DNA from: Anaerolineae bacterium
GTDB lineage: Bacteria > Chloroflexota > Anaerolineae > 4572-78 > J111
Assembly: GCA_020433805.1 (NCBI GenBank)
Contig: JAGRBZ010000007.1
Coordinates: forward strand, 249 to 64,248
Direction: 5' to 3'
DNA: 64,000 nt
Position 1 is the first letter of the stretch; the number at the start of each line of letters is the position of its first letter. The notes beneath the pieces were generated by a model that saw only the letters and a list, made by a program, of their open reading frames with translations, did no database searches and was not told the DNA's origin. The translations under genes and the position numbers were made by a program. Shown here in pieces: positions 2,739-41,663 of the stretch.

Positions 2739-2753
2739 TTAAAGCTATGTGAG

Positions 2754-2826: not shown

Positions 2827-2886
2827 AATTGAGTACCGATTAATATATTATAACGTCTATCAACCGATTTGGCAAAATTAACCAAA

Positions 2887-2957
2887 CTGGGGAACCAGGA
2901 TTCGAACCTGGATATACGGCTCCAAAGGCCGCTGTCCTACCATTAGACGATTCCCCA
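2887..2957 (-). tRNA. tRNA-Gln (anticodon TTG)
   Basis: Reverse complement TGGGGAATCGTCTAATGGTAGGACAGCGGCCTTTGGAGCCGTATATCCAGGTTCGAATCCTGGTTCCCCAG. It has the U1-A72 pair typical of bacterial tRNA-Gln, anticodon loop CTTTGGA and T-loop TTCGAAT. Confidence 0.9.
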
Positions 2958-2967
2958 CTATTTAAGG

Positions 2968-3040
2968 TGCCGAGGCCCAGACTTGAACTGGGGACCCTTT
3001 GATTTTCAGTCAAATGCTCTACCAACTGAGCTACCTCGGC
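2968..3040 (-). tRNA. tRNA-Phe (anticodon GAA)
   Basis: Reverse complement GCCGAGGTAGCTCAGTTGGTAGAGCATTTGACTGAAAATCAAAGGGTCCCCAGTTCAAGTCTGGGCCTCGGCA is a canonical 73-nt cloverleaf with anticodon loop CTGAAAA. Confidence 0.95.
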
Positions 3041-7496: not shown

Positions 7497-7499
7497 CCT

Positions 7500-11000: not shown

Positions 11001-11006
11001 GATAGC

Positions 11007-16823: not shown

Positions 16824-19800
16824 TGGTGTTTCACCCTATCGTGCAGCAGTTATCGCCTAGTGAAGAACAAACCCCGGCTATTCTGGCTCGCAACCAGGAA
16901 GTGGTAGTCACCGCCGGCGCCGGAACCGGCAAAACCCGGACGCTGGTAGCCCGCTATCTGGCCTTGCTCAGCGAGGGAACGGGGCTGCGCAGCATTGTGG
17001 CTATTACGTTTACCCAAAAGGCGGCCCGGGAAATGCGCAATCGCCTGCGGGATGCCATTCGCGAATATCTGGACCGAACTGACTTATCCGAGGACGAGCG
17101 GGGCTTATGGCAAGCGCATTACAGCACGCTCGATGCGGCCCGGGTCAGCACCATCCACAGCCTGTGTGCCGAAATCTTGCGCGCTCATCCCGCTGAGGCT
17201 GGCCTTGATCCTCGCTTTGAAGTACTGGAGGAAGGGCTGACCAACGTCTTGCGAGAACAGGTCATTGCCGAAAGCCTGACCTGGGCGGCCAATCAGCCGG
17301 AGGTAGTCTCGCTGTTTGGGCTACTGGGCGAGGCGGTGTTGCGCCGCACCCTGGCGGTGCTATTAAACCGGCGGCTTGAAACCAGCGCGATTTTTGCCAC
17401 GATGCCGGATAACCTCATCGAACATTGGCACCAGCACCTGAGCCAGACTCAGGCCCAGGTGTTGGCCGTATTGACCAGCAGCACAGCCTGGCAGGCCAAC
17501 CTCGAAACCCTACGACAAAACGAACCAACGAATTCAGCCGACAAATTAGAAGCCCATCGCCAGACGGCGTTAGCCGTGGCGGCTAACCCGACCGGCTTGC
17601 TGGCCCATCTGGACACCATTAAGCTGAATGTTGGCAGTCAGAAAAACTGGCCAGGCGGGGCGGAACAGGTGGCTGAGGTTAAAGCAGCCTTGAAAACCAT
17701 CCGTGAGCTGTGGAAGAAAGAAAAACAATTCTTATTATTGGCCTTGAATGAATTGGACGAGACAGCAGCCGACGCCTTGCCCCGGTTGCGCCGGTTGTTT
17801 CAGTACGGCCATGATCGTTTCATTGCCCTGAAAGAAGCTCAAAACAGCCTTGATTTTGACGATCTCGAGGATAAGACCTTGCGCCTGTTACGTGACCAGG
17901 AAACGGTCCGCCAGCGTTGGCAGCGCGACATCCAGGCCATTCTGGTCGACGAGTTTCAGGACACCAATGACCGCCAGCGAGACTTGGTGGCATTGCTCAA
18001 TGGCGACCAGGGCAAATTGTTCATTGTTGGTGATGCCAAACAATCGATCTATCGCTTTCGCGGCGCTGATGTCAGCGTTTTTCGAGCCGAACGAGACGAG
18101 ATAGTGGCCCGGGGCGGGCAACACGTTCCGCTTGAAACGTCGTATCGGGCCCACAGCGATTTGATTGAGGGCATGAATGAATTGTTGGCCCCGGTGCTGG
18201 GTCGCGCTGCCGACCCGACACGCCCCTGGCTTGAGCCGTTTTCGGCGCTAGAGCCGCATCGCCAAGTAGCCGGCCAGGGCTTCACGGCGCCGCATATCGA
18301 GCTCCATCTCACGGTCGGTAGCAAAAGCGACGGTGCTCTGGACCACGCCGCCAGCGTGTTGGTCAATCGCCTGATCGAACTCGTTGAAGCAGAGGAAATC
18401 TACACCGGTGTAGGTGATAAGGCTCGCCGACTGGATTACGGCCATGTCGCCATCCTGTGCCGCTCATCCACTTCCTTCGCAGCCTATGAGGATGCGCTGG
18501 AAGCAGCCGGCATTCCGTTTTTAACGGTGGCCGGGCGGGGCTTTTATGAGCGGCCGGAAATTCGGGATTTGCTCAATGCCTTGCAAGCCATTGCCGACCC
18601 GACCGACGACTTGGCCCTGGTGGGGCTGCTCCGCTCACCGGCTTTCTCCCTCTCTGATGAAGGGCTGTATCGCCTCCACCAGGCTCGAACCCAGACATCA
18701 AGCTCATTTTGGGAAACCCTCACCTCAAGCGCACTCCATCTGTCTGAGACAGAAAAGCTGCGCCTTGATCGGACCAGGCCCATCATTGACAGGCTGCACC
18801 GCCAGGTGGGCCGTATGCCGGTCGCGGATATTCTGAAGCAATTTCTGGATGAGACGGATTACCGCGCCGCTTTGATCCAAATTGGCCAGCAGCGCAGCGC
18901 CCGCAATGTTAGCAAGTTGCTGGCCGATGCCAACACCGCGGAGTTAGTCAGCGTCAATGAGTTTCTAGCTTATATTAATAACTTGCGTGACAGTGGTAGT
19001 CGTGAAGGTGAAGCCCGGACTCCGGCTGAAGGGGCAGTGCAATTGTTGACTATTCACGCTGCCAAAGGGTTGGAATTTCCGGTCGTGGCCCTGGGCGATG
19101 TTAGTTACAAACCTCCAACCTGGCAAGAAATTCTAATTGACCCCGAATTGAGCCTCTTGATCCCTCATCGGGATGAGGAGAAAAATATAGCGGCCAGTTA
19201 TCTACTGGGCAATCGTACAGACAGCGAGCAGGAGGAGGCCGAATTCAAGCGCCTGCTATATGTGGCCGTTACCCGGGCCGAAGAAAAGGTGCTGTTGAGT
19301 GGAGCCATTAGCTTGAATAAGGACAATAAACTTAAGCGGGCCAGCGGCTGGTTGGCGCTGCTAGCCGAAACCGACAATCTGGGGTTGGGGGATCTGACCA
19401 TTGAACATAATGAGACCGGTGACAAAGCCATTGAATTGACATTAAGCGTGGGACAGAGTCCGGTGAGGTGCACCAATTACGAGCCGGGCTACAGTTTCAC
19501 GCAATCTGGTCGTATCGCCACGGTTGAGCCGGAGATATTGGCTCCGGTGCCGCCGCCTTTGCTCGATCCTGTGACTGTGTCAAAAGCACCGCTTCCGGCT
19601 GAGCGACTACCGCGTATCGCCCGAGTCGTTTCGTCGGCGGTACGCCGGCGTGCGCCGGCCTGGGTGGTGGGGGATTTAACGCACAAAGCCCTGGCGACCT
19701 GGCGTTTTGGCGAGGATGGCTTCGAGGTTTGGCTGGCAGCCCAGGCCCGCAATTATGGTCTGACGGATAATGAGCAGGTCACCGATGCTGTTCAAAAAGC

Positions 19801-20164
19801 GCAGCAAATGTTAGGGCGGTTCCAAAGCCACGAATTGTACCACAGGATGAACAGCGCCGAGCGCTGTCTGCACGAGGTTCCTTATAGTCTGCCCGTGGAC
19901 GGCGCCGTGGAGTCAGGCAGAATGGATGCCTTGTTTCTTCAGGACGATACGTGGCACGTGGTTGAATTCAAAACTGATGCTGTGCGTGACGAGTCTGAAC
20001 GAGAGAGGGTGCTGGCCCAAACCGATTATCTGGCCCAGGTTCAGCGTTACCGGCAGGTAATTGAGGTCATGCTGGGCCAGAAGCCGAAAATCATTTTCTG
20101 CTGGCTCAACTATGCCGGTCGGGTTGAGGTGCGGACTGATTTACGTAGTAAAACAGAAGCTTGA
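16823..20164 (+). CDS. addA: AddA/UvrD-like helicase-nuclease subunit
   Basis: TAGAGTGKT, ITFTQKAAREMRNR, ILVDEFQDTN, FIVGDAKQSIYRFRGA, TIHAAKGLEFPVV, LLYVAVTRAEEKV. C-terminal RecB-type nuclease GRMDALF...HVVEFKTD. Start set at ATG 16823 (TGATG overlap with the addB stop, GGGAGGA Shine-Dalgarno), not the ORF-track start 16787. Confidence 0.9.
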   Translation: MVFHPIVQQLSPSEEQTPAILARNQEVVVTAGAGTGKTRTLVARYLALLSEGTGLRSIVAITFTQKAAREMRNRLRDAIREYLDRTDLSEDERGLWQAHYSTLDAARVSTIHSLCAEILRAHPAEAGLDPRFEVLEEGLTNVLREQVIAESLTWAANQPEVVSLFGLLGEAVLRRTLAVLLNRRLETSAIFATMPDNLIEHWHQHLSQTQAQVLAVLTSSTAWQANLETLRQNEPTNSADKLEAHRQTALAVAANPTGLLAHLDTIKLNVGSQKNWPGGAEQVAEVKAALKTIRELWKKEKQFLLLALNELDETAADALPRLRRLFQYGHDRFIALKEAQNSLDFDDLEDKTLRLLRDQETVRQRWQRDIQAILVDEFQDTNDRQRDLVALLNGDQGKLFIVGDAKQSIYRFRGADVSVFRAERDEIVARGGQHVPLETSYRAHSDLIEGMNELLAPVLGRAADPTRPWLEPFSALEPHRQVAGQGFTAPHIELHLTVGSKSDGALDHAASVLVNRLIELVEAEEIYTGVGDKARRLDYGHVAILCRSSTSFAAYEDALEAAGIPFLTVAGRGFYERPEIRDLLNALQAIADPTDDLALVGLLRSPAFSLSDEGLYRLHQARTQTSSSFWETLTSSALHLSETEKLRLDRTRPIIDRLHRQVGRMPVADILKQFLDETDYRAALIQIGQQRSARNVSKLLADANTAELVSVNEFLAYINNLRDSGSREGEARTPAEGAVQLLTIHAAKGLEFPVVALGDVSYKPPTWQEILIDPELSLLIPHRDEEKNIAASYLLGNRTDSEQEEAEFKRLLYVAVTRAEEKVLLSGAISLNKDNKLKRASGWLALLAETDNLGLGDLTIEHNETGDKAIELTLSVGQSPVRCTNYEPGYSFTQSGRIATVEPEILAPVPPPLLDPVTVSKAPLPAERLPRIARVVSSAVRRRAPAWVVGDLTHKALATWRFGEDGFEVWLAAQARNYGLTDNEQVTDAVQKAQQMLGRFQSHELYHRMNSAERCLHEVPYSLPVDGAVESGRMDALFLQDDTWHVVEFKTDAVRDESERERVLAQTDYLAQVQRYRQVIEVMLGQKPKIIFCWLNYAGRVEVRTDLRSKTEA

Positions 20165-20425: not shown

Positions 20426-23400
20426 ATGTCGAAATTCAGAACATTACGAAATAGAGATGCTTCGAGCACTGTTCGGGGATATGTCTATCAAGTTGATCTT
20501 ACAATCGAAAAGTGGTTAAAGTTACAGCCTGAAGAAATTCTTGAACTTGAATGTGGAGAAGATATAGATCTTATTTCACCCTTGCTTACTGTTATTCCTG
20601 AAGAAGAGCAACGACTGCTTGAACAAATCAAGCAGCGAGAGAGGCCAATCACATTACGAAGTGATGAAGCAATTGAAGCGCTTGCTAATTTCTTGGAGCA
20701 TCGCAAGAGCAATCCTAGCATAGAGCTTATTTTTCAGTATACAACCAGTGCTAAAATAGGCAAGGAACAAAAATCACCAATGACAGATAAAATGGCTGCT
20801 ATTGTTGCCTGGGAAAATATTCGTACAGGCATCTGGCGTAATCCAGATGATCCCAAATTTAAGAAGGCGCTGGATGGTATTTGGAGAATTTTGCACACAA
20901 AGCAAAAGCCTCAAAGCGTACCCCAGAAAACTTGGCAAATCTTTAGAGACTTCCTCGAGGAGTCTGATAGGGAAAAGTTGCTTGAAGTAATCCGCAAATT
21001 TATCTGGAACACAAACACTCGTCCTGCCAGTGATATGAGGCTACGTATTCAACAATTACTTGTGGACAATCGATATGCTAGCAGTGAAACCGAAGCCGAA
21101 GCACAGTATCCAAGACTATTTCTATACATATTCAAGCTGCTCTCTAAGAGCGATGAAAAACAACTCACGGTAAAAAACAGGGAAGAGCAATTAGCTTTGC
21201 CCTGGTTGGACAACAATACTCAAGAATTGTTAGACACACTCATGGCAAAACTCGTGAATGTAACCACCGTTGAGCAATTGTTCAGCAACAACCCTGCCTA
21301 TGAGAATATTGAAACGTTATATGTCCCTCCCCTGGAATTTGAGACAATCAAATCTGTACTTCAAGAAAAGAATATGGTTTGTATTGTGGGCGAGCCACAT
21401 ATGGGTAAGACCTTCACGGCCGTATATCTCTTGTTGTCCTATTATCGTCAGGGCTATCACATCCATTTAATGGGGAACGATAATAGAATATCTATTGCCG
21501 GGCGTTATTCCTGGTCAGATTACGACAAAGATGACCTCAGAAAGTTTATCCAACCTGGTCAAATCACTTATATAGACGACCCATATGGTGCGACGGAAGA
21601 AGACTTCAAATATGCTCAAGAGAGATTTGATTTAAAAATACTTCTGGACGCAGTTCAGTCCAATGATAATGATCATCAACCGCCTAAACTTATCGTCACA
21701 ATGCGAAGGTCGGTTTTTGAACGAGTTGTGCAAGATACCCCACAGATAAGACAGCTTATACTCGATATTTACAAAGGCACTTCCTATGATGAGGAAAGCC
21801 GTCGCATCGTTTTAAGTAGATATATCAATTTCCTTGAACCAAAGTGGGCTTCGGACAACCCGATAATGCAAACAGTCCTTGAAACCGCGCCTAATAAATT
21901 GGTTGCTCCGCACAATATTTATTGGTTTGTTGACCACTCTAAAGATCACGAAAAATTAAATGATGTGTTATTGGCAATGAAAAACGCTAAGGAAATTGTC
22001 CCAGCATTAGCAAGTGAGATAAATCATCTTTCATCAGAGCTTGATCAACTTGTATTTGTAACCATGTATATTACTGATTTCAAACCTGGCTTTCAACGTT
22101 TCCCTCACATGGGCTTGCCTGGCCGTAACTGTTTTAATCACTATCAGATTTTTGCCGAAGCATTAGGTCATAATGACCCTGAAAAAGTTCTCCAGAGATT
22201 TAAAGCTACTTTAGCAAATTGGTCGGCTGTATTTATGGCAATTGGGTTGAAGAGCATTGGAACCGAGTCTCAACATATCGCCGGTGCTGTTTTCCAACAT
22301 CCTTCATTTGCAGAAGCAACGGCTCAATTTATTGAGAAAAGCAAGACCAAAGGTGTTTTTGCAGAATTATGTCTTCAATTCCAAAAGCTCATTTTTGATG
22401 CACAAACTTATGATTCAGCGATGATGTTGGTTCACCCATTGTTTAGACACTTTGAATGTTTACGGCCTGCTGTGTTAGACCAAACTCAAGAGTCATTTAG
22501 AACCGGCGAAAAGTTTGCCCAAAGGACGATTGTTGAAGCATTATTGGCAAATTATCATCAACTCCCGAGCCAACTTCAGCCATTTTTTGATGAGCTGGAC
22601 CCTGAAAACGATAAAGAGATCTGGTATATGTTTATGAAGGCTGCTTGGCCGAATCCTAATCTATTAGTTGAACAAAGAATAGAACTCTGGCGACGGGCGC
22701 TGATTGGAGGCGTTGTATATCCGCCTAATCCACTTTCCTCTAATCTGATGGACGGACCATTTTTGTACTATAGACGGTTGCCAAGCGAATTGCAGAAAAT
22801 CATCCTCGCTTATTTTGAGTTACGCAATCAATATGGCTGGTATTGTGTAGCTTATGCTCTTCTTAATAATTACAATTATCTCCCAGAAGAACTCCAAGAA
22901 TGGTTTCCAATATTGGCATCTGAGGGGGATGAGTACGTAGTTTACCAAATTATGTCAGCTTTGAGGAGTAATTATGAGGGTTTGCCTACTGAAGTTCAAG
23001 CTCTGGTAGTAGATTTCGGAACTGATGAAAATTGGAAATATCGTGCTTATATTGCTCAAATGTTTTGGCATAAAACTGAAACTTTACGATCTGATCATGC
23101 TAAACTTGTAATAGATCTAGCATTACAGGACCAAGACAGCCGTGTCCGTTTGTCAGTCGTCTACAGCCGACTTGTCTTAGCAAGTCTACAGAAAATAGAG
23201 GAGATGGATTCGGCGTATCCCTCAAAAATCTTTAATAGTTTGTTTTACTCTGAGTATCCTGAAGATAAGGCCGGCGTTCTTTTCTCAATATTCGATACAG
23301 CTAGATTCTGGAATGGTTCGAGGGAAGCAGAAGTTTATCGGCGACGATTTGCTGATTTGGTGGCAAGTACGGAACCAATCGTCATTGCAATGATGAGATA

Positions 23401-23542
23401 TAAATTGCAGGAAGACTACCCCTCAAGTTTACCACCACTACCACCTATCACATTACCAGAAACGGAATTGTCCCAATACAAGAGCGAGGTTGAATCGTTG
23501 ACGAGTGGATTGGTCAGCGTCAACTATGGGCCAGGCCATTAG
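20426..23542 (+). CDS. Cap4/DUF4297-like PD-(D/E)xK nuclease head + STAND-type P-loop NTPase + HEAT-like repeat tail (Avs-like antiviral NTPase candidate)
   Basis: N-terminus STVRGYVYQVDLTIEKWL...LECGEDIDLI...LEQIKQR. Walker A VGEPHMGKT (aa 321-329). Walker B ITYIDDPYG (aa 380-388). Four spaced repeats carry NY-x-x-LP-[SET]-[EQ]-[LV]-Q (aa 704-864). AT-rich relative to the flanks. Confidence 0.7.
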   Translation: MSKFRTLRNRDASSTVRGYVYQVDLTIEKWLKLQPEEILELECGEDIDLISPLLTVIPEEEQRLLEQIKQRERPITLRSDEAIEALANFLEHRKSNPSIELIFQYTTSAKIGKEQKSPMTDKMAAIVAWENIRTGIWRNPDDPKFKKALDGIWRILHTKQKPQSVPQKTWQIFRDFLEESDREKLLEVIRKFIWNTNTRPASDMRLRIQQLLVDNRYASSETEAEAQYPRLFLYIFKLLSKSDEKQLTVKNREEQLALPWLDNNTQELLDTLMAKLVNVTTVEQLFSNNPAYENIETLYVPPLEFETIKSVLQEKNMVCIVGEPHMGKTFTAVYLLLSYYRQGYHIHLMGNDNRISIAGRYSWSDYDKDDLRKFIQPGQITYIDDPYGATEEDFKYAQERFDLKILLDAVQSNDNDHQPPKLIVTMRRSVFERVVQDTPQIRQLILDIYKGTSYDEESRRIVLSRYINFLEPKWASDNPIMQTVLETAPNKLVAPHNIYWFVDHSKDHEKLNDVLLAMKNAKEIVPALASEINHLSSELDQLVFVTMYITDFKPGFQRFPHMGLPGRNCFNHYQIFAEALGHNDPEKVLQRFKATLANWSAVFMAIGLKSIGTESQHIAGAVFQHPSFAEATAQFIEKSKTKGVFAELCLQFQKLIFDAQTYDSAMMLVHPLFRHFECLRPAVLDQTQESFRTGEKFAQRTIVEALLANYHQLPSQLQPFFDELDPENDKEIWYMFMKAAWPNPNLLVEQRIELWRRALIGGVVYPPNPLSSNLMDGPFLYYRRLPSELQKIILAYFELRNQYGWYCVAYALLNNYNYLPEELQEWFPILASEGDEYVVYQIMSALRSNYEGLPTEVQALVVDFGTDENWKYRAYIAQMFWHKTETLRSDHAKLVIDLALQDQDSRVRLSVVYSRLVLASLQKIEEMDSAYPSKIFNSLFYSEYPEDKAGVLFSIFDTARFWNGSREAEVYRRRFADLVASTEPIVIAMMRYKLQEDYPSSLPPLPPITLPETELSQYKSEVESLTSGLVSVNYGPGH

Positions 23543-23752: not shown

Positions 23753-25072
23753 CTTAGTAACAGAGGGGGTAGCCATTTGCCAGTATCTAGGGAGGAAGGA
23801 CGAAATGGGCAACAAGGTCGGGATCAGGTAGAGCTGGCAAAATAGGAAAAGGAACCCCCTGGTTCAAAATATGATCTAAAAAGATAAAACCTAATTGAAC
23901 TAAACTATGATAAAAGGCATCGGTACGCACCAGACAACGAAAGATGCCCGAAAAAATGGCTTCAATGCCTAACAAAATGAGCAGATAATAAGCCACCGCG
24001 GCAGCCAACAAAAAGCGTTCCAGGCGTTCAGGCGTACGAATACGGGTCCGATCCAACTGAAAGCCCCGGCTCTTGAAATCGGCAAAACAGGTTTCAATAG
24101 TAAAGCGGTGTTCATACCACTGTTTGGCCTCTTGTTGAGTGGGACAGTTGGTCACAAAAAAGATATGGTGTTGTTCGGTCTGGTGCCAGGCAATGAAAAT
24201 ATTCAAGCCTGCAACTGGCTGCTTATGAATGAAAGGACAGTGTAGCAACAAAGCTGTATCGGTTGAGGCAAGGCCCAATTCCTGCCCGATTTCCGTCAGC
24301 GACAGCCATTTACCATCAAAATAAGCCAGATGGCTGTGACTGGTACGACAGACAAACTGCCAGTTGGTTTGTTGAGTGAGCCAGGTTAAGACCTGTGTCC
24401 CATCAAACTCAGCATCAGCCACGAACACCACTTGGCTAGCAGTTGGCACTAAAGTGGCCACATATTGTAAAAGTTCAAGTTGTTCCTGTTGAGGGGTATG
24501 TCCTTTCTTGCCTTTCAAACAATGCCAGGCAATTGGAATGGCCCGCTTTTTGTAATAGACACTGACCAGCAAACACAGACAGCGACCGCCCAATTTGGTA
24601 CTATCCATCATTAACACCAGTGGCTGGTTGGGAGCTAGGCGCTGCAACATTTGCCTGGCTAAAGGTTATAGACAGACTTGACCTGCAACCATCGGCTTTT
24701 GATAAAACGTTCAAAACGGCTGACCAGGCTGGGTGTCTTGTAGTCGTACAGGACTTTTTGGGCTATCTTGGTCAACCGTCCATCCCGACTGCGTAACAAG
24801 CCTGTGACCAACATGGCCAGGCTCAGCCGATGTTCTGCCAGCAGGTAGGGAAATTGTTGGCTCAGTTCGTCGACTATGAAACGAAACAAGCGAGCGGCAT
24901 CACTATTATTCTGTCTTTTTTTGTCGTCGTTTACGACGGCGTTGATATTTGTTACATCGGGTCTGGTATTGTTTTCGGATCGTTTGCATTTCTCAGCTCC
25001 TTCATATTTTTTAGCTGTACTTTGCTAAACTTTATCCGTTTTTGTCAATTCCTGACCCCCTACGTTACTAAG
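23753..25072 (-). mobile_element. IS4-family insertion sequence (1320 bp) with imperfect terminal inverted repeats (IRs) and 8-bp target duplication
   Basis: Ends are CTTAGTAACAGAGGGGG (23753-) and the reverse complement of CCCCCTACGTTACTAAG (-25072). ATTTTCCT flanks both sides directly (23745-23752 and 25073-25080). The transposase carries a Y-x2-R-x3-E-x6-K motif (YEHRFTIETCFADFK). Confidence 0.85.
23787..24889 (-). pseudogene. IS4-family DDE transposase, split by a 1-nt deletion
   Basis: ORFs 24659-24889 and 23787-24650 are one gene. Copy 2 reads ...VYEPLARQMLQR... continuously. This copy reads ...VYNL* and then restarts at MLQR in another frame (aacctttagcc versus gagcccttggcc). Confidence 0.75.
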
Positions 25073-25374: not shown

Positions 25375-25544
25375 TGTGCCCAGTGACAGATAGCTACCAT
25401 AGCCTAAGTTACCATGAAAAGAGTCAAGAGAGTATCTTAGGTTAAGATAATTTTATGATTAAGATTTAGACTGGTTTCACATAGAAATAATGTTCTGATA
25501 CAATAGTTATTATTGTCCCAATAAGGTTGCAAGAGGAACCAAGT

Positions 25545-28500
25545 ATGCCGACGTTTGCTACAAGTCCGTTACCTGTACCCGAATCGTGGAAAGAGTTTGA
25601 AAAAATAGCCAGAGACATATACGCACGCCTTTGGCAAGATCCTAATGCTGAACTCAATGGACGTGACGGCCAATCGCAGCATGGCGTAGATGTTTATGGT
25701 CAACCTTGGGATTTGCAAGGTAGATATGTAGGTGTTCAATGCAAACGTTACAGAGAGACTAAACTCACCAAAACAAAGATCATAAAGGAAATTAAAAAAG
25801 CTGAACAATTCACCCCAAAGTTATTTGAGTATATTATCGTCACGACAGAGGTCAAAGATGGTGCTTTGCAAGAAATCGTTCGGGAAATAAATGTTGAACG
25901 TCTGGCAAACCAAAAGTTTCCTGTTCGTTTAGTCTTCTGGGAAGATCTATGTACCAACTATTTAGCCCATCCCGATTATCGCGATCTCCTACGTGAAATT
26001 GCTCGAAAACATTACTCGGATTGGGTAAACCTTTTTTCAGAAATAAAAGCTTTAGAAAGTTCGTCAATTTTTCAAATCAGTGTCGAGCGTGAACATAATC
26101 TTGGATCCCTCACCTTGCAAGAACGCCATCTCCAAGAACGATTGGAGGTTTTGAGAGCTGAAGCTAATAATGGCTACAAAGAAGCCATACAACCACAGGT
26201 AAGTGCATTGGTTTCAGATATGGAAAATATTGCTCAAGATGCTAACCTTGACTCGGAATTACAGGGACAGGTTTATCGGCTTGCAGCAAATGTTGTCTTA
26301 CCCAATCGTCCTGGTGGAGATACCAAGCAATGTAGAAATTATCTCTTGAAAGCACGAACATTTTCATCTTCAGGTGACGGACTTGTCAAGTGTCAGATCA
26401 TCGAAGCTTTATTGGCCTATCTAACACGTGGCTTAGACGTTGCTCTGGCAATGGTGGATGACATCGAGGGTAAAGAAGCTGACCGTTTCCGATTTAGCAT
26501 GTATTTGGAGAATAATGAATGGGCCGCTTGCACGACGTTGCTGCAAACCTATAAAGAAACCGACTTGTCCAACACGAAGGACTGGTTGCGATTGTTGGTC
26601 TTGTATTATGCAGGGGTTGGCAATCGGGTAAAGCTAGAGGAAATATCAGAACAATTGCTGGCTTCCATTAGTCATGCAGACCACTATATGATGGCCGGAT
26701 TCGCCTGGGTACGTTTGGCCTACCGACAGTACCAACATTTTTGCGAAAAACATGATGTTTGTCCCGCTTTACATATAGAACTAGCTCTGGATGAGTTAAT
26801 AGATTTTGAGGCTCGACAACAAGCCCTAGATATGTTCGCCCGAGCTTTTGAGATATATCGCGAGAAAAACTGTATTTTAACCGCGCAGCAAGCTCTACTA
26901 ACAGCAATACAATTAGCAATGGATGAGTCAGACTCCAAACGATTAGACCAGCTCCTTGAGCAGCTACAGGCACTTGATCCACAACACCCTCTCGTGATAT
27001 TGAAAAGGGATGAAATTAGGTTATCCAAACTAGCCAAACCGGAAGCTGTAACTGAGCAATTAGAGAAGTTACTCATTGATTCTGAAACTGACCTAGCCCT
27101 TGGTCTTGCCCTTGATGTGTCTCAAGAGGATGAAACTATAACCAAACAAGTTGCTTACCTGCTGGCACATCATCAGACACGTTTTGAACACGACGATATT
27201 GCTTCTGTCCAGTTTTTATACAAAGTCTTTCACTTGCATATGCAAGCAGATGCTCAGCCAGAAGCAAAAACTTGGCTAGATAGCCTATCCCCCCCAGAAC
27301 GTTATGGTCATCTACAACCACTTTTACAATTTATATTCTATATCAAACATGATCCACCCTTAGCTCCTCAATACTTAGAGCAAGCATTAGAAAAGTACCC
27401 GGAACACCCAGAAATTTTGGCGGTTGCAACAAAATATTATTGGGGGCAAGGGGATTATCAGCGACAGATTGAGTATGCCAGAAAACTATTCGCAATTCTA
27501 CCTATTGCGTCAGTTGCCATAGAAATTCTCAATGCGTTGATAGCTGCTCAGAATTATGACGTATTTTTGCAAGGTGTTAGTGAATTTGAAAGTCTATCCA
27601 TTCCTGAAGAAGCCATAAAGTCCAAGTGTGCCTACGCCCATCTTCGTTTAGGGCAGCCTCTGAACGCTTTGGAGCATCTAGAATGGTTGCATAATCAGAA
27701 TAAAGCGCGATTGGATGAATTAATAAACTTGGCTCGCATTCTTCAATATTTGGGACAATGGGGAGACGCTTTTGCTGTATTGGGTGATTGTGTCCAACTT
27801 TATCCAGAAGAACCTGAAGCATATTTAGAATTATCGCAAGCTTATTTAGACGCAGGCCAACGCGATGAGAGTTTCCAATGGGCTATGAAAGCTCGCAGTC
27901 GTTTCCGGTATAACGCGAATGTAGCAGTTCATCTTGTCCAGGTAAGCCACCTAACCGGATTTGAACATCGCTCTGACATTCAAAAAGTGTTTCAAGAATT
28001 TTCACTTGGCGGTCGTTTTGAAAGTACAGGGTATATGAGACCCGCATCACTAGAAGAAATCAGGTCAGCACTTAAGTCTCATCGGGATTTTTCTGAAAGT
28101 TTAGAGACCTCATATCGTCAAGGAAAGATATCTTCCATGATGTTATGCTATCTCCAACCAGGTTTCCCTAATGCTCTTTTCCGCTTTCATATCATCAGCA
28201 CTCAGTTTAAGCTTCCTCGATATGTGGCGGCCGGAGATCAACCCTTTGATGCGGCTTGGTTAAAAAAGAATAATCCCAAAGAGGTTGTTCTTGATTACAC
28301 GGCCATCTTGACCTTATGGTCATTGTATCGTGATGACTGGCTTGATACATTGCGTCACAATTTTCGCCAAGTCTGGGTTCCCGATAAACTCCTCCAGGCT
28401 ATGTACTCCGAGCAAAGGTTGATGAGGCAATATGGTCAACCATCACAATACAAAATACAAAGAGCCATTAGAGATGTCATCGAACAAAAACCGGGGAAAT

Positions 28501-31500
28501 TTCACATTCATTCTCAGGCCGATTCAGTAGATAGTTGGGGTGTAACGGGGATACACGCCGAAGCTCTAATTGCAGAGGAGAAAAATCTACCATACTTGAG
28601 TGAATACGACAATGATGAATTGATATCAACAACCCAAAACATAGGTTTGCGCTCCGTAGCCAGAGTCTTAAAAAAGAGTGGGGAAATCAATAATAAGACT
28701 CATCAACACTTAACCTCACAAGCTCGTCGACGTACCCGCTCAGAAAACAGATTGGTTTTACCAAAAGAAAGTGGTCTAGTAGTAGCTATGCCTGCTCTAA
28801 TTACCATTGTAAATGCTGGTGCGCTTGAGGAATTCTGTGATTATTTCGGTGAGATCCACCTCTCCCAATCTGCCTGGCAAAGAATTTTGGCCCAAATAGC
28901 AGAATTTGAGCGTACAGAAGAAATGATTCGTGAATTGCGCCACTTGCAAAGCATGTTGGGAGAAGCTGTACAGGATGGTTTTGTACAAGTTGGGGCCGCG
29001 TCGCCTGACCAAAGATTACTTTTACAGGCGGAACAAGACAAAAAAGATGACAATACACCTACCGAAGATGCTAATTCTTTAAGAGACATCAAGCAATTTT
29101 TGTCCGAATATCTTGATGACTTGCTGTGGATTGCCCATTCTCGTCAACTTTCAATTTGGGCAGATGATCGCTGGATGAGCAAATTTTATCCCAATGAGCG
29201 TAGACCAATATTTATCTTCGGCACAGACTCATTTCTAGAATGGGCACGAAGAAAGTCTTCAGATGATGATGAATATTTTGACAGATACAGTCGCATAATT
29301 GAGTGGGGATACCTAGGTCTACCATTACACCCAAACTACATTCTGTGGTTATTGAATCAAGACTTGCAACCGGAAGCCAAGATTTTTGCAGCTGCACTAT
29401 CCCTCTATCGTCAATATGTGATAGATATTTGGAATGCTTTCCGAATCACAGGAGAAATATCAGCCGAGTTCGGAACCAAACTTTTTGATCTATATAATCA
29501 GGCAATTATCTCAACGCTATTTCAATGTTTTGAGCAGGGAATTCTTTTAAAGACTTGCGCAGATATCTTTCGAGCTTTGGATTTGACTCGAAATACCTCA
29601 TTGGCGGAAGGCAATGAACCTCAATTCTTGGCAAGTCTGATAATTAGGGGTGTTAATGATGATTGCCTTGCACAATTGGATGGTGTCGAAGAATATTTAA
29701 CAAATTGGGCTCAATTTGTGAATTTCAACCGTTGGCTCGATAAAGTATTGCAAACATCCGGGGTTACGACGGAAGTAATACAGGAGGCTTGGTATGAGTT
29801 GTTGCAATCGCCTATTGCGATGTATGACAGTGCTAAAAATGAACAGGATAGGTTGATTGCTACACTTTTTTCACAAAGATTATTTGATGCAGCTCCAGAT
29901 CATGCTAAAGATTATTTGGTCAACAGCACCCTTGAGCCAACAATGCGACAAGCTTTTGGGTTTGATGCTCAATATTCTATCATTTTTACCAGTTCTGACG
30001 GCACGATACGAGCCAAAATTCCAGCCGAAGAATGGTCAAAAGACATTAACCAAGCAATTACAGAATTTGTAACCACCGAGTCCTCAGATCCTATAACTGT
30101 AGGAACTGCCACTATACAGGCCAACTGGGTAGCTTACGGATCAATATTCCTGCGATATAAAGAGTTTCCCTCAGAACTGCACAATGATCAGCCTGACGCT
30201 AAATTCCTTGACGGAGACTCCATCAGCATTCTACCGTATGCTACTTCGGAAAATATGAAAGAACGTTTAGGCTTCTGGTTTCAGGGGCTACGAAAACTAA
30301 AAAAGATGGACGGTGACTATGACGAATGGTTAATGTTATGTAACGACATCGAGTCTGAATCATCGGCGGACGTTACAGAAGCCGGACATCGACTCCAGTG
30401 TATTTTGTTTGGTCAGTTGACAATAGCGAAAGATTACCTTACTGAAGCAACGCAAATAGGGTCTCAAGCCATCTTACATGTATTAGCTCACATAGAACCT
30501 CAAGTAGTTCGGCGATGGTTAGATCTGCCCCAGTTAGATTGGGAAACCTCGGATAGCCTGACAACTTGGGCCAAGACCGGAATAGATGAGTTGTTATCAA
30601 ATGCAAACGACACCGCAAGAATTGATTTGCTCATAAACAATTATTCGAGTTTTGGATACTCAATTTTTCCGGATGCTTTGGTTTGGCAAGAGGCTATTGA
30701 TCAATCACTAGAAGATTGCAGCCTAGCAGAGTTGCGACGTGCAATTGATGATTTAGCGATTTTGAGCGAAAAAAGCCGATCGATGCCACTAAAAGCGAAC
30801 GTCCTTTTATCACTACTTCGTTTGGAACAAATAATTGATGATGCTGAGCTTGAAGCCAGTATCTCTGAACGTATCCATAAACTAACAGCCTGTATCGCAC
30901 AACCTTGGAAATCTACTGATGAGCAGGATCGATCCTATCAAAAATTAGAACAGACGCTATGTGATTACCTTTACATGGCTTGGCTCAAACAAAATAGCTC
31001 TGATCAAGATGTATTGCGAGAAATTGCATATCTCGCCTATCTGGGCGCTGCGATTATCACAGATATGTTGGCTAGTTCCGGTTTGTTGCTACTTGAATAT
31101 ATTGATGATCTAATAAGGGAGTTAACTACAGTTGCTCAAAAACGTTGGACAAAGGAAGGCATTGTGGCCCGGCAACCACACGGTATATTTAAACCAAGGT
31201 GGGGTGTAAACCTAAATTACGCTCTTGCATATTTGCTTAGGGTTAACATCCTGAACCAGCTACATTTAGGCAAACTTGCTACTAACTCAACAACTCGTCA
31301 AACATTACTTGATGCTGGTTCACTCTACCGTCTCATTCAAGCATACATTCCTAATCTTAGCCCTAAAGAAGATTGGCTTGACTCCTTACTCGTGGCAGAC
31401 ATTGGGCAAGGGATAGCTTACATCATATCAACAGCACTTGGGGACGAATTGGAGATTTGGCCAGAGGAAGAGCAAGTAAAATTCAACATCTGTAGTACGC

Positions 31501-32090
31501 CGGAAACTGGTGTTGCTATGATCGCTGAAAGGTTAAGAAATCTTCCTGCAGCCAATGAAAATGAGATTTCACATATCGTTGGTATGTCATTCGTCTCAGC
31601 GCCAACTTGGAGTGAAGAAGCCTATCAGCTTGTTGCTGTTTTATTGTATCCAGATATTCTTAATCAAATCATGCGTTTTCCAGTTGCCTATGGAGAACTT
31701 GTGGCACAGCTTATCTATTTGCTAGCAACCGATGAAACACTTTCTACCGAGCTTGCAAATCAGGCAAAAAACCTGGTATTTGGCTTGCCACCACAACTGG
31801 ATAATAGAAGCGATCTTATAGTAACACAGGCGAGGGTATTGTCAGGGGTAATCAACTTTACCCCATACACAAAAAACATAGAAACTTGGCTAAAAGATTT
31901 GACAACTGATACGGTGATAGAGACTTCTATGGTGAGACGTGGCCTAATGCCGTTTGTAAAGTCATGGCCTCATTATGAATATGAGATTAAACAAATTGTT
32001 GGAAAAGCCCTTGCTGAAATTGCAACTATCCCACGATTTTCAAATCTATGGGAACTTAAACGAATTAGCCGCGAGTTTACTCCACAATAG
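25545..32090 (+). CDS. Giant (about 2181 aa) Mrr-like PD-(D/E)xK nuclease + TPR array + PIN-like domain + long helical C-terminal region; no P-loop detected
   Basis: N-terminus HGVDVYG...YVGVQCKRY...YIIVTT (D...Q-x-K core). TPR-like helices, for example PEAYLELSQAYLDAGQRDESFQWAMKA. VVLDYTAIL...SEQ...SEYDNDEL at aa 915-1060. No GK[ST] appears anywhere. Start set at ATG 25545 after AAGAGGA. AT-rich. Confidence 0.75.
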   Translation: MPTFATSPLPVPESWKEFEKIARDIYARLWQDPNAELNGRDGQSQHGVDVYGQPWDLQGRYVGVQCKRYRETKLTKTKIIKEIKKAEQFTPKLFEYIIVTTEVKDGALQEIVREINVERLANQKFPVRLVFWEDLCTNYLAHPDYRDLLREIARKHYSDWVNLFSEIKALESSSIFQISVEREHNLGSLTLQERHLQERLEVLRAEANNGYKEAIQPQVSALVSDMENIAQDANLDSELQGQVYRLAANVVLPNRPGGDTKQCRNYLLKARTFSSSGDGLVKCQIIEALLAYLTRGLDVALAMVDDIEGKEADRFRFSMYLENNEWAACTTLLQTYKETDLSNTKDWLRLLVLYYAGVGNRVKLEEISEQLLASISHADHYMMAGFAWVRLAYRQYQHFCEKHDVCPALHIELALDELIDFEARQQALDMFARAFEIYREKNCILTAQQALLTAIQLAMDESDSKRLDQLLEQLQALDPQHPLVILKRDEIRLSKLAKPEAVTEQLEKLLIDSETDLALGLALDVSQEDETITKQVAYLLAHHQTRFEHDDIASVQFLYKVFHLHMQADAQPEAKTWLDSLSPPERYGHLQPLLQFIFYIKHDPPLAPQYLEQALEKYPEHPEILAVATKYYWGQGDYQRQIEYARKLFAILPIASVAIEILNALIAAQNYDVFLQGVSEFESLSIPEEAIKSKCAYAHLRLGQPLNALEHLEWLHNQNKARLDELINLARILQYLGQWGDAFAVLGDCVQLYPEEPEAYLELSQAYLDAGQRDESFQWAMKARSRFRYNANVAVHLVQVSHLTGFEHRSDIQKVFQEFSLGGRFESTGYMRPASLEEIRSALKSHRDFSESLETSYRQGKISSMMLCYLQPGFPNALFRFHIISTQFKLPRYVAAGDQPFDAAWLKKNNPKEVVLDYTAILTLWSLYRDDWLDTLRHNFRQVWVPDKLLQAMYSEQRLMRQYGQPSQYKIQRAIRDVIEQKPGKFHIHSQADSVDSWGVTGIHAEALIAEEKNLPYLSEYDNDELISTTQNIGLRSVARVLKKSGEINNKTHQHLTSQARRRTRSENRLVLPKESGLVVAMPALITIVNAGALEEFCDYFGEIHLSQSAWQRILAQIAEFERTEEMIRELRHLQSMLGEAVQDGFVQVGAASPDQRLLLQAEQDKKDDNTPTEDANSLRDIKQFLSEYLDDLLWIAHSRQLSIWADDRWMSKFYPNERRPIFIFGTDSFLEWARRKSSDDDEYFDRYSRIIEWGYLGLPLHPNYILWLLNQDLQPEAKIFAAALSLYRQYVIDIWNAFRITGEISAEFGTKLFDLYNQAIISTLFQCFEQGILLKTCADIFRALDLTRNTSLAEGNEPQFLASLIIRGVNDDCLAQLDGVEEYLTNWAQFVNFNRWLDKVLQTSGVTTEVIQEAWYELLQSPIAMYDSAKNEQDRLIATLFSQRLFDAAPDHAKDYLVNSTLEPTMRQAFGFDAQYSIIFTSSDGTIRAKIPAEEWSKDINQAITEFVTTESSDPITVGTATIQANWVAYGSIFLRYKEFPSELHNDQPDAKFLDGDSISILPYATSENMKERLGFWFQGLRKLKKMDGDYDEWLMLCNDIESESSADVTEAGHRLQCILFGQLTIAKDYLTEATQIGSQAILHVLAHIEPQVVRRWLDLPQLDWETSDSLTTWAKTGIDELLSNANDTARIDLLINNYSSFGYSIFPDALVWQEAIDQSLEDCSLAELRRAIDDLAILSEKSRSMPLKANVLLSLLRLEQIIDDAELEASISERIHKLTACIAQPWKSTDEQDRSYQKLEQTLCDYLYMAWLKQNSSDQDVLREIAYLAYLGAAIITDMLASSGLLLLEYIDDLIRELTTVAQKRWTKEGIVARQPHGIFKPRWGVNLNYALAYLLRVNILNQLHLGKLATNSTTRQTLLDAGSLYRLIQAYIPNLSPKEDWLDSLLVADIGQGIAYIISTALGDELEIWPEEEQVKFNICSTPETGVAMIAERLRNLPAANENEISHIVGMSFVSAPTWSEEAYQLVAVLLYPDILNQIMRFPVAYGELVAQLIYLLATDETLSTELANQAKNLVFGLPPQLDNRSDLIVTQARVLSGVINFTPYTKNIETWLKDLTTDTVIETSMVRRGLMPFVKSWPHYEYEIKQIVGKALAEIATIPRFSNLWELKRISREFTPQ

Positions 32091-32446
32091 GTGGGTAATT
32101 CTCGTGAAATTGGTAGATCATTGCCAAAACTACGTATAGGCTATGACACCGTCGTCGACCCCATTACCACTACGTTTTTAATTCTAAACCCTCGATATCA
32201 TTCGAAACAAAACCCTTGAACCAACCTTTCTCATCTAATATGCTGCTCCTGTAACCACAAAATCGACGTCTTCTAATTGCTCTTGTGCGGCCAAGTTTCT
32301 GACCATAGGTTCCAAATTACCACTTTTTTGGGTCCGTAACGCCAATATTTTTGGCCGTAAAACACAAACGAGAGGTATTGACCCAACTCGCCAGGAATGA
32401 TACGCTGACAAAAATCTCTAATGAAATTACGGGACAGGAGGCCAGC

Positions 32447-33364
32447 GTGAATATCGAGGCTTTTCTACAGTTTCTGCAGGCGGAAGATCGGGCCGAGCGG
32501 ACCATTGCCGGCTATGCGCGTGATCTGACCAAATTTCTGGCATGGTTTGAACAAACCACCGGCCGGCAACCCCAGCCGGCGATTGTCACCCCGCTAGACA
32601 TCCGCGAATATCGCCGCCATTTGCAGCAGGAAAAACGGCTCAAACCGGCCAGCGTCAATCGCCGTCTGGCCGCGCTGCGGGTCTATTTCCGCTGGGCTAC
32701 CGAAACCGGTCTCATTGCCGCCAACCCGGCGGCATCCATCAAGATGCTGCCCCAAATCGGGCAAGGTCCCCGCTGGCTGGAGCGGGACGAAGCCTACGCC
32801 CTGATCCGGGAAGCGGATGCGACCATTCGATTGGCCAAGGCTAAAGAACTGACCCCCTCAGCCAATCTGGCCACCCGCAACGCCGCGATTTTGTCGTTGT
32901 TGCTGCACGGATTGCGAGTGTCGGAAGTGTGTGCGCTACGTCTGGAAGATGTAACCATCAGGGAGCGAAGCGGCAAGGTAGTGGTTCATGCCGGCAAGGG
33001 CAACAAATACCGGGAGGTGCCGATCAATGTCGATGCCCGCCAGACCGTGTCGGCCTGGTTAAAGGTACGGCTGGATGATAACGGCATCTACCTTTTCACC
33101 GGACGGCGCGATCAACAGTTGCAACCCCGGGCCGTTCAGCGCTTTTTGGATCGGCTGGCCCGGCGGGCCGGTCTTGATCCACAGAAAGTGACGCCCCACG
33201 CCTGCCGCCATACCTTCGGCAAGAGTTTGGTCGATGCCGGCGAGTCGCTGGACCGGGTAGCGATCTTGATGGGGCATAATGACCTGTCGACGACTGCCCT
33301 TTACACCACCCCCTCGCGGACGGACCTGGCCAGTGCGGTTGAGAAAATTGCCTGGCAGGATTGA
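32447..33364 (+). CDS. XerC/XerD-like tyrosine recombinase
   Basis: LHGLRVSEV (Arg), HACRHTFG (H-x-x-R), GHNDLSTTALYT (Tyr). Start proposed at GTG 32447 (GGAGG 7 nt upstream); the longest ORF starts at 32351. Confidence 0.88.
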   Translation: MNIEAFLQFLQAEDRAERTIAGYARDLTKFLAWFEQTTGRQPQPAIVTPLDIREYRRHLQQEKRLKPASVNRRLAALRVYFRWATETGLIAANPAASIKMLPQIGQGPRWLERDEAYALIREADATIRLAKAKELTPSANLATRNAAILSLLLHGLRVSEVCALRLEDVTIRERSGKVVVHAGKGNKYREVPINVDARQTVSAWLKVRLDDNGIYLFTGRRDQQLQPRAVQRFLDRLARRAGLDPQKVTPHACRHTFGKSLVDAGESLDRVAILMGHNDLSTTALYTTPSRTDLASAVEKIAWQD

Positions 33365-40581: not shown

Positions 40582-40719
40582 TTGTTCATTATACTCGGTC
40601 CGAATTGCCAAGTCCACAACATGTTAGCTAACCCTGAAGGTGGAGGTTCTCTTACTGGAGGATGTCGATCATAAATTATTGTAACAGAGGAGGATATCAA
40701 GCATTTAACGATAAGTCAG

Positions 40720-41663
40720 ATGAATCGTCTCTTGATTATCGTCATTTTAGCAAGCGTTACCATTCTCCTCTGGGGAACGGTACAGACTTCCCGTTCCCTA
40801 CCCCACTGCCTGAAGCATTTCTTATCCCAGACGGACAGGTGGTGTTTACCCGTACCGATATCAAGACCAGGCAGGCCGCCTTTCACCGGTATGATCTAAT
40901 GAGGTTTAGCACTCTGCTGGGTAATGGTAGCTACTTTGGGCCTGATTTTACAGCTGAGTATCTGGAAGGAACATTGGTACTGCTGGCTGGCTTTTTGGTC
41001 ATCGGTCATCACTTCTGGTGGGTTGGAGAACCAACGATATGGCTGGGTGTTGGTAGTGTCTTCAGCACCCTGGAGGTATTGCTCCTCTTCATGCTGTTAA
41101 TCAGCGCCCTGCGTGTAATAAAAGCAAGAGCTAACATTCTGCCTACCCAACACCGTTTACCCTTCTATTTCTTTTTAGCAGCAGCCATTTGGCAGTTTAT
41201 CGGATCAGGTATTTTGGTGTTGTTAATTAACTTGCCGGTGGTGAACTACTATGAGCACGGCACGTTCCTGACCGTGGCTCACTCGTATGTCTCATTCTTA
41301 AGTGGATTTGGATTCATCGCTCTGGGACTATTGCTTTACGCGATACGCCATACCAGGTCGGATACCTGGAGCGAGCGTCGCCTATTTTGGGGTTTTTGGG
41401 CACTCAACGTTGGTTTGGCATTGATGGTGGTGGTCTCAGTAGTGCCGGTAGGAGTACTACAACTGTTGGAAGCAGTGCAGATGGATTATGCCGCCAGGTC
41501 GCTGGCTTTTTATCAGCAGCCGCTGGTGTATCTATTGAACGAATTGCGGCTGCCCGGAGACACCTTGATTATTCTCGGCGCGGTCTTGCTGGCTTGGGAG
41601 GTCGTGCCCAAAACTGGACGTATTTTGCCGGGACAAAGAACTCAACCGTTTACAGGACAATGA
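40720..41663 (+). pseudogene. Quinol-dependent nitric oxide reductase (qNOR/NorZ-like) remnant: N-terminal frameshift plus a large internal deletion
   Basis: Frame A from ATG 40720 gives the N-terminal TM helix [19 protein letters not shown]. Frame B gives [45 protein letters not shown] (qNOR N-terminal periplasmic segment). That is joined directly to [26 protein letters not shown]...[18 protein letters not shown] (helices VII-XII). Heme His ligands are degraded (HGH to HSY). Confidence 0.7.

Follow-up and report, generated by a model that had tools for sequence, protein, structure and literature searches.

The protein family closest to the subject of this study is TGP (TPR-GreA/B-C-PIN), described by Kaur, Burroughs, Iyer & Aravind (eLife 2021; PMC8195603, section 7). 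Its members share a constant, fast-evolving core composed of TPR repeats, a GreA/B C-terminal domain (GreA/B-C) and a novel PIN domain, the last of which is represented in Pfam by PF20698 (PIN domain associated with TPR-GreAB-C-PIN system). N-terminal to the core lies one of 13 interchangeable effectors, among them a restriction endonuclease (REase); the gene mostly stands alone, and no nucleoside triphosphatase (NTPase) is present (PMC8195603). The family is widespread, and sensing of hijacked RNA polymerase through GreA/B-C has been proposed for it (PMC8195603). The only experimentally validated member is Agp of E. coli ECOR25, which together with Bab provides E. coli with abortive-infection defence against T5; mutations in its GreA/B-C abolish defence, and a PIN mutant also fails but destabilises the protein (bioRxiv 10.1101/2024.11.07.622273). 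The present analysis concerns a much longer relative encoded in a 64,000-nucleotide stretch of contig JAGRBZ010000007.1 (positions 249 to 64,248 of the forward strand; assembly GCA_020433805.1) from an Anaerolineae bacterium. This whole stretch is referred to as the window, and coordinates are those of the window unless another locus is named. The gene, a complete open reading frame (ORF) for a giant TPR-PIN conflict protein, occupies 25545..32090 of the forward strand, on which all of its features lie, and encodes 2181 amino acids (aa) plus a stop codon.

A profile alignment (hhalign) of 18 giants of this type with eight canonical REase-TGP proteins reaches a probability of 100% (E 1.9e-45) and covers positions 1-1284 of the giants. 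By this sequence comparison, the N-terminal 1250-1300 residues of the giant are those of a relative of the TGP family, which is normally NTPase-less, and the giant is likely to be a TGP-related defence protein. The canonical REase-TGP proteins (P0004-P0011, including a Ktedonosporobacter rubrisoli protein) also begin with an Mrr-type domain, 37-42% identical to that of the giant and with the same D...QxK residues, followed colinearly by a TPR superhelix, a helix-turn-helix (HTH) segment, a PF20698-type PIN and a post-PIN helical tail. Canonical TGP proteins, like the giant, have no NTPase, are encoded by stand-alone genes and vary in their N-terminal effector. An earlier sequence-only reading of the window had regarded an NTPase-less protein with two nuclease-type effectors as unusual, but this is the defining layout of the TGP family: the string 'REase+TPR+GreAB-C+PIN' has 906 matches in the source table of PMC8195603, the most among the architecture strings searched; ~179 rows of that table read 'TPR+PIN'. 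The family is already known and REase, TPR and PIN without an NTPase are its norm, so the giant is not categorically new.

The differences from canonical TGP lie elsewhere. Canonical proteins are ~1300 aa long, whereas the giant has 2181 aa. They carry GreA/B-C (PF01272) between TPR and HTH, whereas the giant has none, and they have one HTH-PIN unit, where the giant appears to have two in tandem. Finally, canonical proteins end ~160 aa past the PIN, while the giant runs on for ~930 aa, comprising an alpha-solenoid and a beta-domain. At the fourth acidic position, the giants have GTD, where canonical proteins have W[TL]Q. The loss of GreA/B-C, the probable duplication of HTH-PIN and the clade-specific solenoid of ~900 aa, all beyond the view of the sequence-only reading, are the truly unusual part of this protein. 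The long clade defined by these features is effectively undescribed and apparently represented by one uncommented supplementary-table row (PMC8195603).

Exchangeable effectors on a constant core

The N-terminal domain of the giant (aa ~14-145; 25584..25979) occupies the swappable effector position. The sequence-only reading had seen an Mrr/REase-like core here, and this assignment holds: the Pfam models for Mrr-type nucleases (PF04471 / PF13156), Mrr_cat (aa 14-117, 22.3 bits against a cut-off of 21) and Mrr_cat_2 (aa 29-125, 22.4 bits against a cut-off of 22), both score above their cut-offs. None of the 11 relatives that carry the REase departs from D49 (HGVDVYG) or Q65-x-K67 (VGVQCKRY), and we take these residues to represent the D...QxK variant of PD-(D/E)xK that is typical of Mrr. 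The domain is a predicted nuclease, an Mrr-type DNase with an intact D...QxK site. It is joined to the core by a conserved helical linker (aa ~160-245; 26022..26279) with an LRxxxNxGY...YRLAA motif, which marks the start of the constant part in the alignment consensus. Across the clade, between 123 and 507 aa precede the YRLAA motif, beyond which the sequences are colinear throughout.

The domains found in this position vary. Mrr REase is detected by Pfam in 5 of the 18 giants and in more by alignment, its bearers being the giant of the window (the query), P0002, P0003, P0012, P0013, P0018 and the L004 protein. SIR2_2 occurs in 5 of the 18 (E 5e-27), among them P0034, P0038, P0040 and P0045, and P0041 combines TIR_2 with SIR2 (E 7.5e-24). 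P0027 begins with DUF4062, P0024 with a transmembrane (TM) helix, and P0015 and P0021 with a domain of ~230 aa of no known family, while P0019 and the L005 protein have nearly nothing ahead of the conserved core. Interchangeable N-terminal domains of predicted toxin type on a constant core are a hallmark of conflict systems. The L005 giant (7034-13378 of its locus; Anaerolineales metagenome-assembled genome (MAG); 30% identity) is also the most divergent genomic relative. It is almost devoid of an N-terminal effector and is preceded by an overlapping 384-aa ORF (5917-7071) without a Pfam match, and three TPR_12-rich proteins are encoded ahead of it as well. The effector in L005 may be encoded by a separate gene.

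After the linker, a TPR or helical-repeat superhelix recognised by Pfam TPR families extends over aa ~246-800 (26280..27944). In agreement with the TPR-like units reported earlier, TPR_19 and TPR_14 pass their cut-offs at aa 724-775; matches to TPR families reach aa 790, and a weaker TPR signal starts at aa ~447. These two families are matched in 15-16 of the 18 giants, sequence matches in the PDB are to TPR/PPR proteins only (aa ~630-810), and hhalign shows the region to be colinear with the canonical TGP TPR region. In the canonical proteins P0004, P0006 and P0008, PF01272 is found at aa ~815-890. Pfam detects it in none of the 18 giants, and the alignment of the giants with the canonical proteins shows a clean gap across the GreA/B-C columns. 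Judging from these alignments, GreA/B-C, the RNA-polymerase-docking domain, is absent from the long clade. The same applies to an NTPase. The earlier statement that GK[ST] is absent is correct, as neither this motif nor GxxxxGK[ST] occurs anywhere in the giant; NTPase families have no match in any of the 18 clade members, and none is found for the query in Pfam, NCBIfam or PADLOC.

HTH-PIN modules and the C-terminal region

The segment between the TPR superhelix and the C-terminal region is best described as two successive HTH-PIN-like modules. HTH-like module A (aa ~822-885; 28008..28199) is placed where canonical TGP has GreA/B-C and then HTH, and is the second hhalign match to the canonical HTH. 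It is followed by PIN-like module A (aa ~905-1025; 28257..28619), with D917 in VVLDYTAILTLW, E956, and E1020 in YLxEY. HTH-like module B (aa ~1030-1062; 28632..28730) is the first hhalign match to the canonical TGP HTH that lies just 5' of the PIN. PIN module B (aa ~1075-1245; 28767..29279), with D1207, D1208 and D1228 invariant, is the probable counterpart of the TGP PIN of PF20698. A post-PIN helical module (aa ~1246-1330; 29280..29534; Y1248, W1254 and Y1256 conserved) is shared with canonical TGP proteins.

Several lines of evidence support this division. Local hhalign of the canonical HTH, PIN and tail against positions 1016-1315 of the giants gives a probability of 96.2% (E 2e-9), and an independent alignment of the canonical HTH and PIN against positions 809-1243 gives 93.4% (E 2.5e-7). 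The post-PIN alignment runs to aa ~1315 of the giant and aa ~1260 of the canonical protein. PF20698 ('PIN-TPR-GreABC') is matched at E<0.01 in 8 of the 18 giants, with the best score in L004 (28.0 bits). In four of five diverse members tested, module B covers this model nearly in full length (1-135 or 6-135 of 138 positions), and in P0012 it covers positions 1-37; the E-values of the five lie between 1e-5 and 0.02. For module A, the match is confined to the N-terminal third of the model (E 0.12). A weak match to PF24407 ('HTH_upstream_double_PIN') was obtained in P0003. At least 90% of the 18 giants retain D917, and all of them have E956, D1207, D1208 and D1228; the spacings D917-39-E956 and D1208-20-D1228 are PIN-like. 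An AlphaFold2 (AF2) model of aa 790-1330, built from a shallow alignment of 8 rows (mean predicted local distance difference test (pLDDT) score 56), was used for its secondary-structure pattern only. In it, module A shows a beta-alpha-beta-alpha-alpha-beta-alpha pattern (pLDDT ~60-85). In a second AF2 model (aa 1070-2181), module B has four short parallel-type strands (1077-79, 1103-05, 1204-05 and 1224-25; pLDDT 65-85). Both patterns are compatible with a PIN fold.

Since the canonical HTH and PIN align to both halves, and since a row of the 2021 table reads 'PIN+PIN', a tandem duplication of the HTH-PIN unit is favoured by these sequence data over a single PIN with a large insert. The row in question describes MBI4846278.1 from a Candidatus Omnitrophica MAG as 'TM+SIR2+TPR+PIN+PIN+TM' (2304 aa); no other row of the TGP source table in PMC8195603 reads 'PIN+PIN', and the text of that paper does not discuss the protein. 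Judged from annotation alone (length, SIR2 N-terminus, double PIN and no GreAB-C), this protein appears to belong to the same long clade. It agrees with P0038 in length and N-terminal domain type, and differs from the giant of the window in having a SIR2 effector instead of an REase; its C-terminal ~1000 aa are without annotation except for TM calls, which are probably spurious. The row supports the double-PIN reading independently. A literature search on 'double PIN' found nothing relevant. The sequence-only reading had placed a single PIN-like segment here; the PF20698 match, although below cut-off, agrees with its PIN-like character, but two tandem HTH-PIN-like modules are found instead of one.

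Other observations make the PIN assignment in the giant less certain. The PF20698 match of the query (aa 1084-1214; E 7e-5; 23.5-24.4 bits) remains below the 27.8-bit cut-off. Where the clade consensus of module B has its first-strand Asp (IVAD), the query and P0002, the relative closest to it, have Met (Met-1082 in the query): both read Ala-Met at aa 1081-1082 (28785-28790), while most other members keep D or E. PIN-A lacks a clearly conserved third acidic residue after the third strand. Foldseek returned nothing significant with the low-confidence first model, VapC/PIN chains appearing only at E~2-3; with the second AF2 model, described below, no PIN match was significant, although that search was swamped by generic solenoids and is uninformative on PIN-B and the beta-domain. 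Because the first-strand Asp of PIN-B is lost, the PIN chemistry of the query may rest on PIN-A (D917/E956) or may be weakened, and one PIN site may be partly decayed in the sub-lineage of the query and P0002. The conserved acids of PIN type are split over the two modules, which may form separate active sites or a single composite one.

The unassigned C-terminal part was previously put at more than 1100 aa; this is too high, since it comprises ~930 residues beyond PIN-B, after aa ~1250. The alignment with the canonical tail extends to residue ~1315-1330, and the remainder is clade-specific. No match to this part was obtained in Pfam, NCBIfam, PADLOC or PDB sequence searches. Its fold is described by the second AF2 model (mc440016e18b9), which covers aa 1070-2181, was built from an alignment of 29 rows and has a mean pLDDT of 85.9 and a predicted template modelling score (pTM) of 0.74. 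The model is helical from ~1260 to ~1470, beta-rich at ~1478-1561 and then forms a long alpha-solenoid to the C-terminus. More precisely, a clade-specific alpha-helical region (aa ~1331-1470; 29535..29954; pLDDT mostly 85-94) leads to a small beta-rich insert domain of beta-beta-alpha-beta-beta-beta-beta order (aa ~1478-1561; 29976..30227; pLDDT ~85-95), and this to a HEAT/ARM-like alpha-solenoid (aa ~1570-2181; 30252..32087; pLDDT mostly >85). Foldseek against the PDB gives 37 matches at E<1e-3, all to large solenoids of HEAT/ARM type (CAND1, importin-beta, SF3B1, transportin and DNA-PKcs), with TM-scores of 0.1-0.2. In the model, the likeness to solenoids of the CAND1/importin-beta type is one of fold class and not of homology. 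The conserved C-terminal residues are overwhelmingly W, Y, L, P and G, with no conserved catalytic constellation, and a predicted solenoid without such a constellation fits a binding or scaffold role.

The beta-rich domain also bears on whether the canonical TGP mode of action might be kept, with a cryptic or relocated GreA/B-C-like element, such as this domain, docking in the secondary channel of RNA polymerase while the PIN cleaves the extruded transcript. The overall homology to TGP speaks for such a mode, as does the size of the small beta-rich domain, which is about that of GreA/B-C, and both TGP theory and the Agp mutants point to the sensing of RNA polymerase. However, PF01272 is present in the canonical relatives and missing from the giants, where a clean deletion is found at its position. 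The beta-domain itself lies ~230 aa downstream of PIN-B and not upstream, and hhalign of this domain against the canonical GreA/B-C profile gives a probability of 0.1%, on which its identity as a relocated GreA/B-C was rejected. We consider retention of the canonical mode improbable.

The extent of the long clade was established with a HMMER profile of aa 1084-2181, scanned against 1.84 billion representatives (50% identity clusters). It finds 57 proteins or clusters at E<1e-3, 32 of them below 1e-30. About 20 of the 57 are full length (2070-2426 aa) and the remainder are contig-truncated fragments; none is a canonical TGP protein of 1300 aa. A word-indexed homologue search with aa 1221-2181 (29205-32087) at E<=0.01 gave no match, not even to the identical protein P0001, and as the full HMMER scan found 57 relatives, the empty result is a limitation of the search and not biology. 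With the whole protein, the word index returns three full-length matches, to the query's own sequence, to P0002 (2200 aa, 60% identity) and to P0003 (2165 aa, 40%), and eight canonical proteins of ~1300 aa that share only the N-terminal nuclease domain (33-42% identity).

The same data bear on the integrity of the gene. An assembly chimera, or an artefact in which a TGP-like gene is fused to an unrelated gene downstream of it, might be suspected from the metagenome-assembled source of the contig and from the empty C-terminal word-index search. However, the same end-to-end architecture is found in the ~20 full-length proteins, for which both the samples and the assemblers were independent (ENA, Logan, JGI and NCBI MAGs). 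Residues on either side of the junctions are conserved, the whole ORF has an even GC content of 41-43%, and the AF2 model is confident over aa 1070-2181. The colinear architecture in so many independent assemblies excludes a misassembled chimera, and an artefact of either kind is extremely unlikely. The possibility of misassembly raised with the sequence-only reading is thereby answered, and its giant gene of ~2181 aa proves to be an intact ORF.

Distribution and genomic setting

The clade is sparsely distributed. A survey of 185,579 species-representative genomes yielded no more than two loci, which belong to MAGs of Anaerolineae/Anaerolineales; one clade member is annotated from an Ardenticatenaceae MAG, and the known hosts are mostly Chloroflexota MAGs. 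The protein identical to that of the window (P0001) is also encoded on an independent ENA metagenome scaffold. Neighbourhoods were compared in the window and in L001, L002, L004, L005, L006, L008 and L010. No neighbouring gene family is common to these eight loci, from which it would follow that the giant gene acts alone, without a conserved partner. Defence genes adjoin the giant in four of the eight: the window has the DUF4297-nSTAND3 gene and the pPIWI_RE island described below, P0002 is next to pP_pnuc_1 and PHP-AAA_23 genes, P0012 is encoded directly downstream of a type I restriction-modification operon, and the gene of P0015 has an integrase on one side and RloB+AAA_21, Macro and SIR2 genes on the other. 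PADLOC-DB v2 matches no family to the giant at E<=0.1.

These distributions also inform the question of whether the giant could be a housekeeping RNA-processing or scaffold protein of Chloroflexota, a helical-repeat platform with PIN RNases in the manner of eukaryotic SMG6- or Nob1-type factors, with no immune role. RNA metabolism does employ large solenoids that carry PIN domains, the best Foldseek matches are eukaryotic scaffold proteins, and L004 has metabolic neighbours. Against this, the clade is very sparse (57 clusters in 1.84 billion representatives and 2 matches in 185,579 species genomes), its N-terminal toxin domains are swapped, with SIR2 and TIR among them, the gene of the window lies in a low-GC island with an insertion sequence (IS) fragment and a recombinase, and defence genes adjoin in half of the loci. 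Such a role is consequently very unlikely, and the homologues, which are sporadic, are not the conserved housekeeping scaffolds that would have refuted the sequence-only reading.

In the window, the giant gene is located within a block of 41-43% GC at ~20.2-32.1 kb; the DNA before it has ~57% GC and that immediately after it ~55%. The island of 41% GC is set in a contig background of ~55-58% GC (Anaerolineae). A DeaD helicase encoded at the start of the contig shares 100% identity with a protein from an Anaerolineae MAG, which identifies the host as a filamentous member of the Chloroflexota. A truncated transposase of the IS4 family (287 aa; 23787..24650, reverse strand), which matches positions 51-316 of a model of 340 positions, lies upstream, and a XerC/D-like tyrosine recombinase (32351..33364, forward strand) lies downstream, at the high-GC edge of the island. 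The sequence-only reading had described the gene as situated between IS debris and a recombinase, with no methyltransferase nearby, and both statements are correct; among ORFs of at least 150 aa scanned at 16.8-37.5 kb, no methyltransferase was found. Flanking direct or inverted repeats that would mark the boundaries of the island were not found, apart from two short matches that are probably due to chance. A 30-nucleotide inverted repeat, 83% complementary, pairs 24829-24858, at the start of an 88-aa ORF upstream of the giant, with 27145-27174 in the TPR region of the giant, and this is probably a chance match.

In the list of ORFs, the frame of the giant extends over 25527..32090 (forward strand). 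The start was set at the first ATG, at 25545, which gives exactly 2181 aa and is preceded by an AGAGGAA motif resembling a Shine-Dalgarno sequence. A promoter-like site on the same strand (25476..25504; TTCACA-17-TACAAT with a TG-extended -10), 40 nucleotides 5' of the ATG, is the top scorer in the scanned region; it is a consensus match only, and the counts of such sites in the region are not above shuffled expectation.

The same 41% GC island carries a gene for a DUF4297-nSTAND3 protein of 1038 aa (20426-23542, forward strand), which combines an N-terminal DUF4297 / LmuA (Cap4-like) nuclease with an nSTAND3 NTPase (Pfam E 1.8e-16; PADLOC LmuA 1.3e-11). Because the giant has no NTPase, and both genes are on the same strand of the same island, one could imagine a two-gene system whose NTPase is supplied in trans by this protein, the two genes having been parted by the IS4 insertion. 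However, no nSTAND3 gene adjoins the giant in any of the seven other loci. With an LmuA/Cap4-like nuclease as its own effector, the nSTAND3 protein is self-contained, and canonical TGP is described as a stand-alone gene. On the neighbourhood evidence, the trans partner was ruled out, and a two-gene system has hardly any likelihood. By its predicted domains, the DUF4297-nSTAND3 gene is a self-contained STAND-type defence gene.

The surrounding region contains further loci that deserve mention. A complete pPIWI_RE island of three genes (6345-13613, forward strand) lies upstream of the 41% GC island, separated from it by ~6.5 kb of AddAB-like genes. Its genes, all on the forward strand, encode an REase with domain Y (6345-7496), a domain-Z protein (7500-11000) and an Argonaute-like pPIWI_RE protein with X, MID and RNaseH-like domains (11007-13613). 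Just upstream of this island are clustered genes for tRNA-Asp/Gln/Phe (2753-3040) and the gene for a tyrosine integrase (3190-4278). The AddAB-like genes (13641-20164, forward strand) are AddB-like (PDDEXK_1, ADDB_N) and AddA-like (UvrD helicase) and overlap by 37 nucleotides. At 57-62% GC, they form the maximum of the window. They are located between two defence loci and may be either a housekeeping AddAB or part of the island. Further downstream, two overlapping ORFs (40662-42943, forward strand) encode a NorB/COX1-like oxidase, of which just the C-terminal portion is present (247-434 of the profile), and an NDH-2-type oxidoreductase; the pair looks like a truncated or frameshifted gene and adjoins another IS4-like transposase (43046-44266, reverse strand).

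Proposed mechanism and comparison with known systems

Taken as a whole, the evidence makes it reasonably probable that the giant is a stand-alone, NTPase-free anti-invader protein, acting in phage defence or abortive infection, from a rare, long, TGP-like clade, and that it works as follows. In the resting state, the helical-repeat regions, i.e., the TPR and the solenoid with its beta-domain, would keep the nucleases inactive. An infection cue would be recognised by the TPR, by the clade-specific C-terminal solenoid or by both, which would take over the sensor or docking role ascribed to GreA/B-C in canonical TGP. Binding of the cue would cause a conformational change or self-association. The PIN module or modules would then cut RNA and the Mrr-type domain DNA, so that the phage, and probably the cell, is stopped, either as direct or as abortive defence. 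The sequence-only reading had already likened the protein to sensor-effector conflict proteins without the NTPase switch, and the TGP homology, the swapping of effectors and the mobile and defence context bear this out.

The proposal of an NTPase-free defence protein is weakened by several considerations. Defence in Agp needs GreA/B-C, which is absent here, and any transfer of function from canonical TGP would be by analogy. The trigger, the oligomerisation and the nucleic-acid targets of the long clade are all inferred. In addition, the neighbourhoods of L004 and L005 have no obvious defence genes, those of L004 being metabolic.

With GreA/B-C gone and a large new module gained, the simplest reading is that the sensor or docking function has moved to the C-terminal solenoid. 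A stronger form of this idea is that the solenoid of ~900 aa with its beta-domain is a new, NTPase-free pattern-recognition module that replaces the RNA-polymerase-docking GreA/B-C; we regard this as a tentative suggestion that is rather doubtful at present. If true, the long clade would sense something other than hijacked RNA polymerase, for example, a phage protein or a nucleic-acid structure, and interchangeable effectors (REase, SIR2 and TIR) would be fired together with a duplicated PIN, making it a distinct defence system and not a subtype of TGP.

Regardless of this stronger form, the long clade is a natural experiment in which a sensor domain has been lost, HTH-PIN has probably been doubled, a helical module has been gained and the swapping of effectors has been kept. 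It separates two questions, namely the role of the TPR-PIN core alone and that of the accessory sensor, and it offers a testable case of an immune sensor-effector without an NTPase switch. The analysis also gives a predicted fold to ~930 previously unannotated residues and delimits a clade, of 57 clusters, that PADLOC does not include and that current Pfam models detect below threshold only.

Among experimentally studied systems, Agp resembles the giant as a TGP-family protein with TPR and PIN. In contrast, Agp has 1094 aa, needs its GreA/B-C and passes its signal on to Bab, a separate executioner, by way of an amyloid motif at the N-terminus, and, unlike the giant, it has no fused nuclease effector, double PIN or C-terminal solenoid. 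The STAND/Avs antiviral ATPases, which are organised as effector, NTPase and TPR sensor and are exemplified by the DUF4297-nSTAND3 gene nearby, share with the giant a swappable N-terminal effector, a large helical-repeat sensor, a single-gene organisation and residence in defence islands. However, where these ATPases have a central P-loop NTPase, the giant, which has no Walker A motif and no NTPase match in Pfam, carries its PIN modules in the centre.

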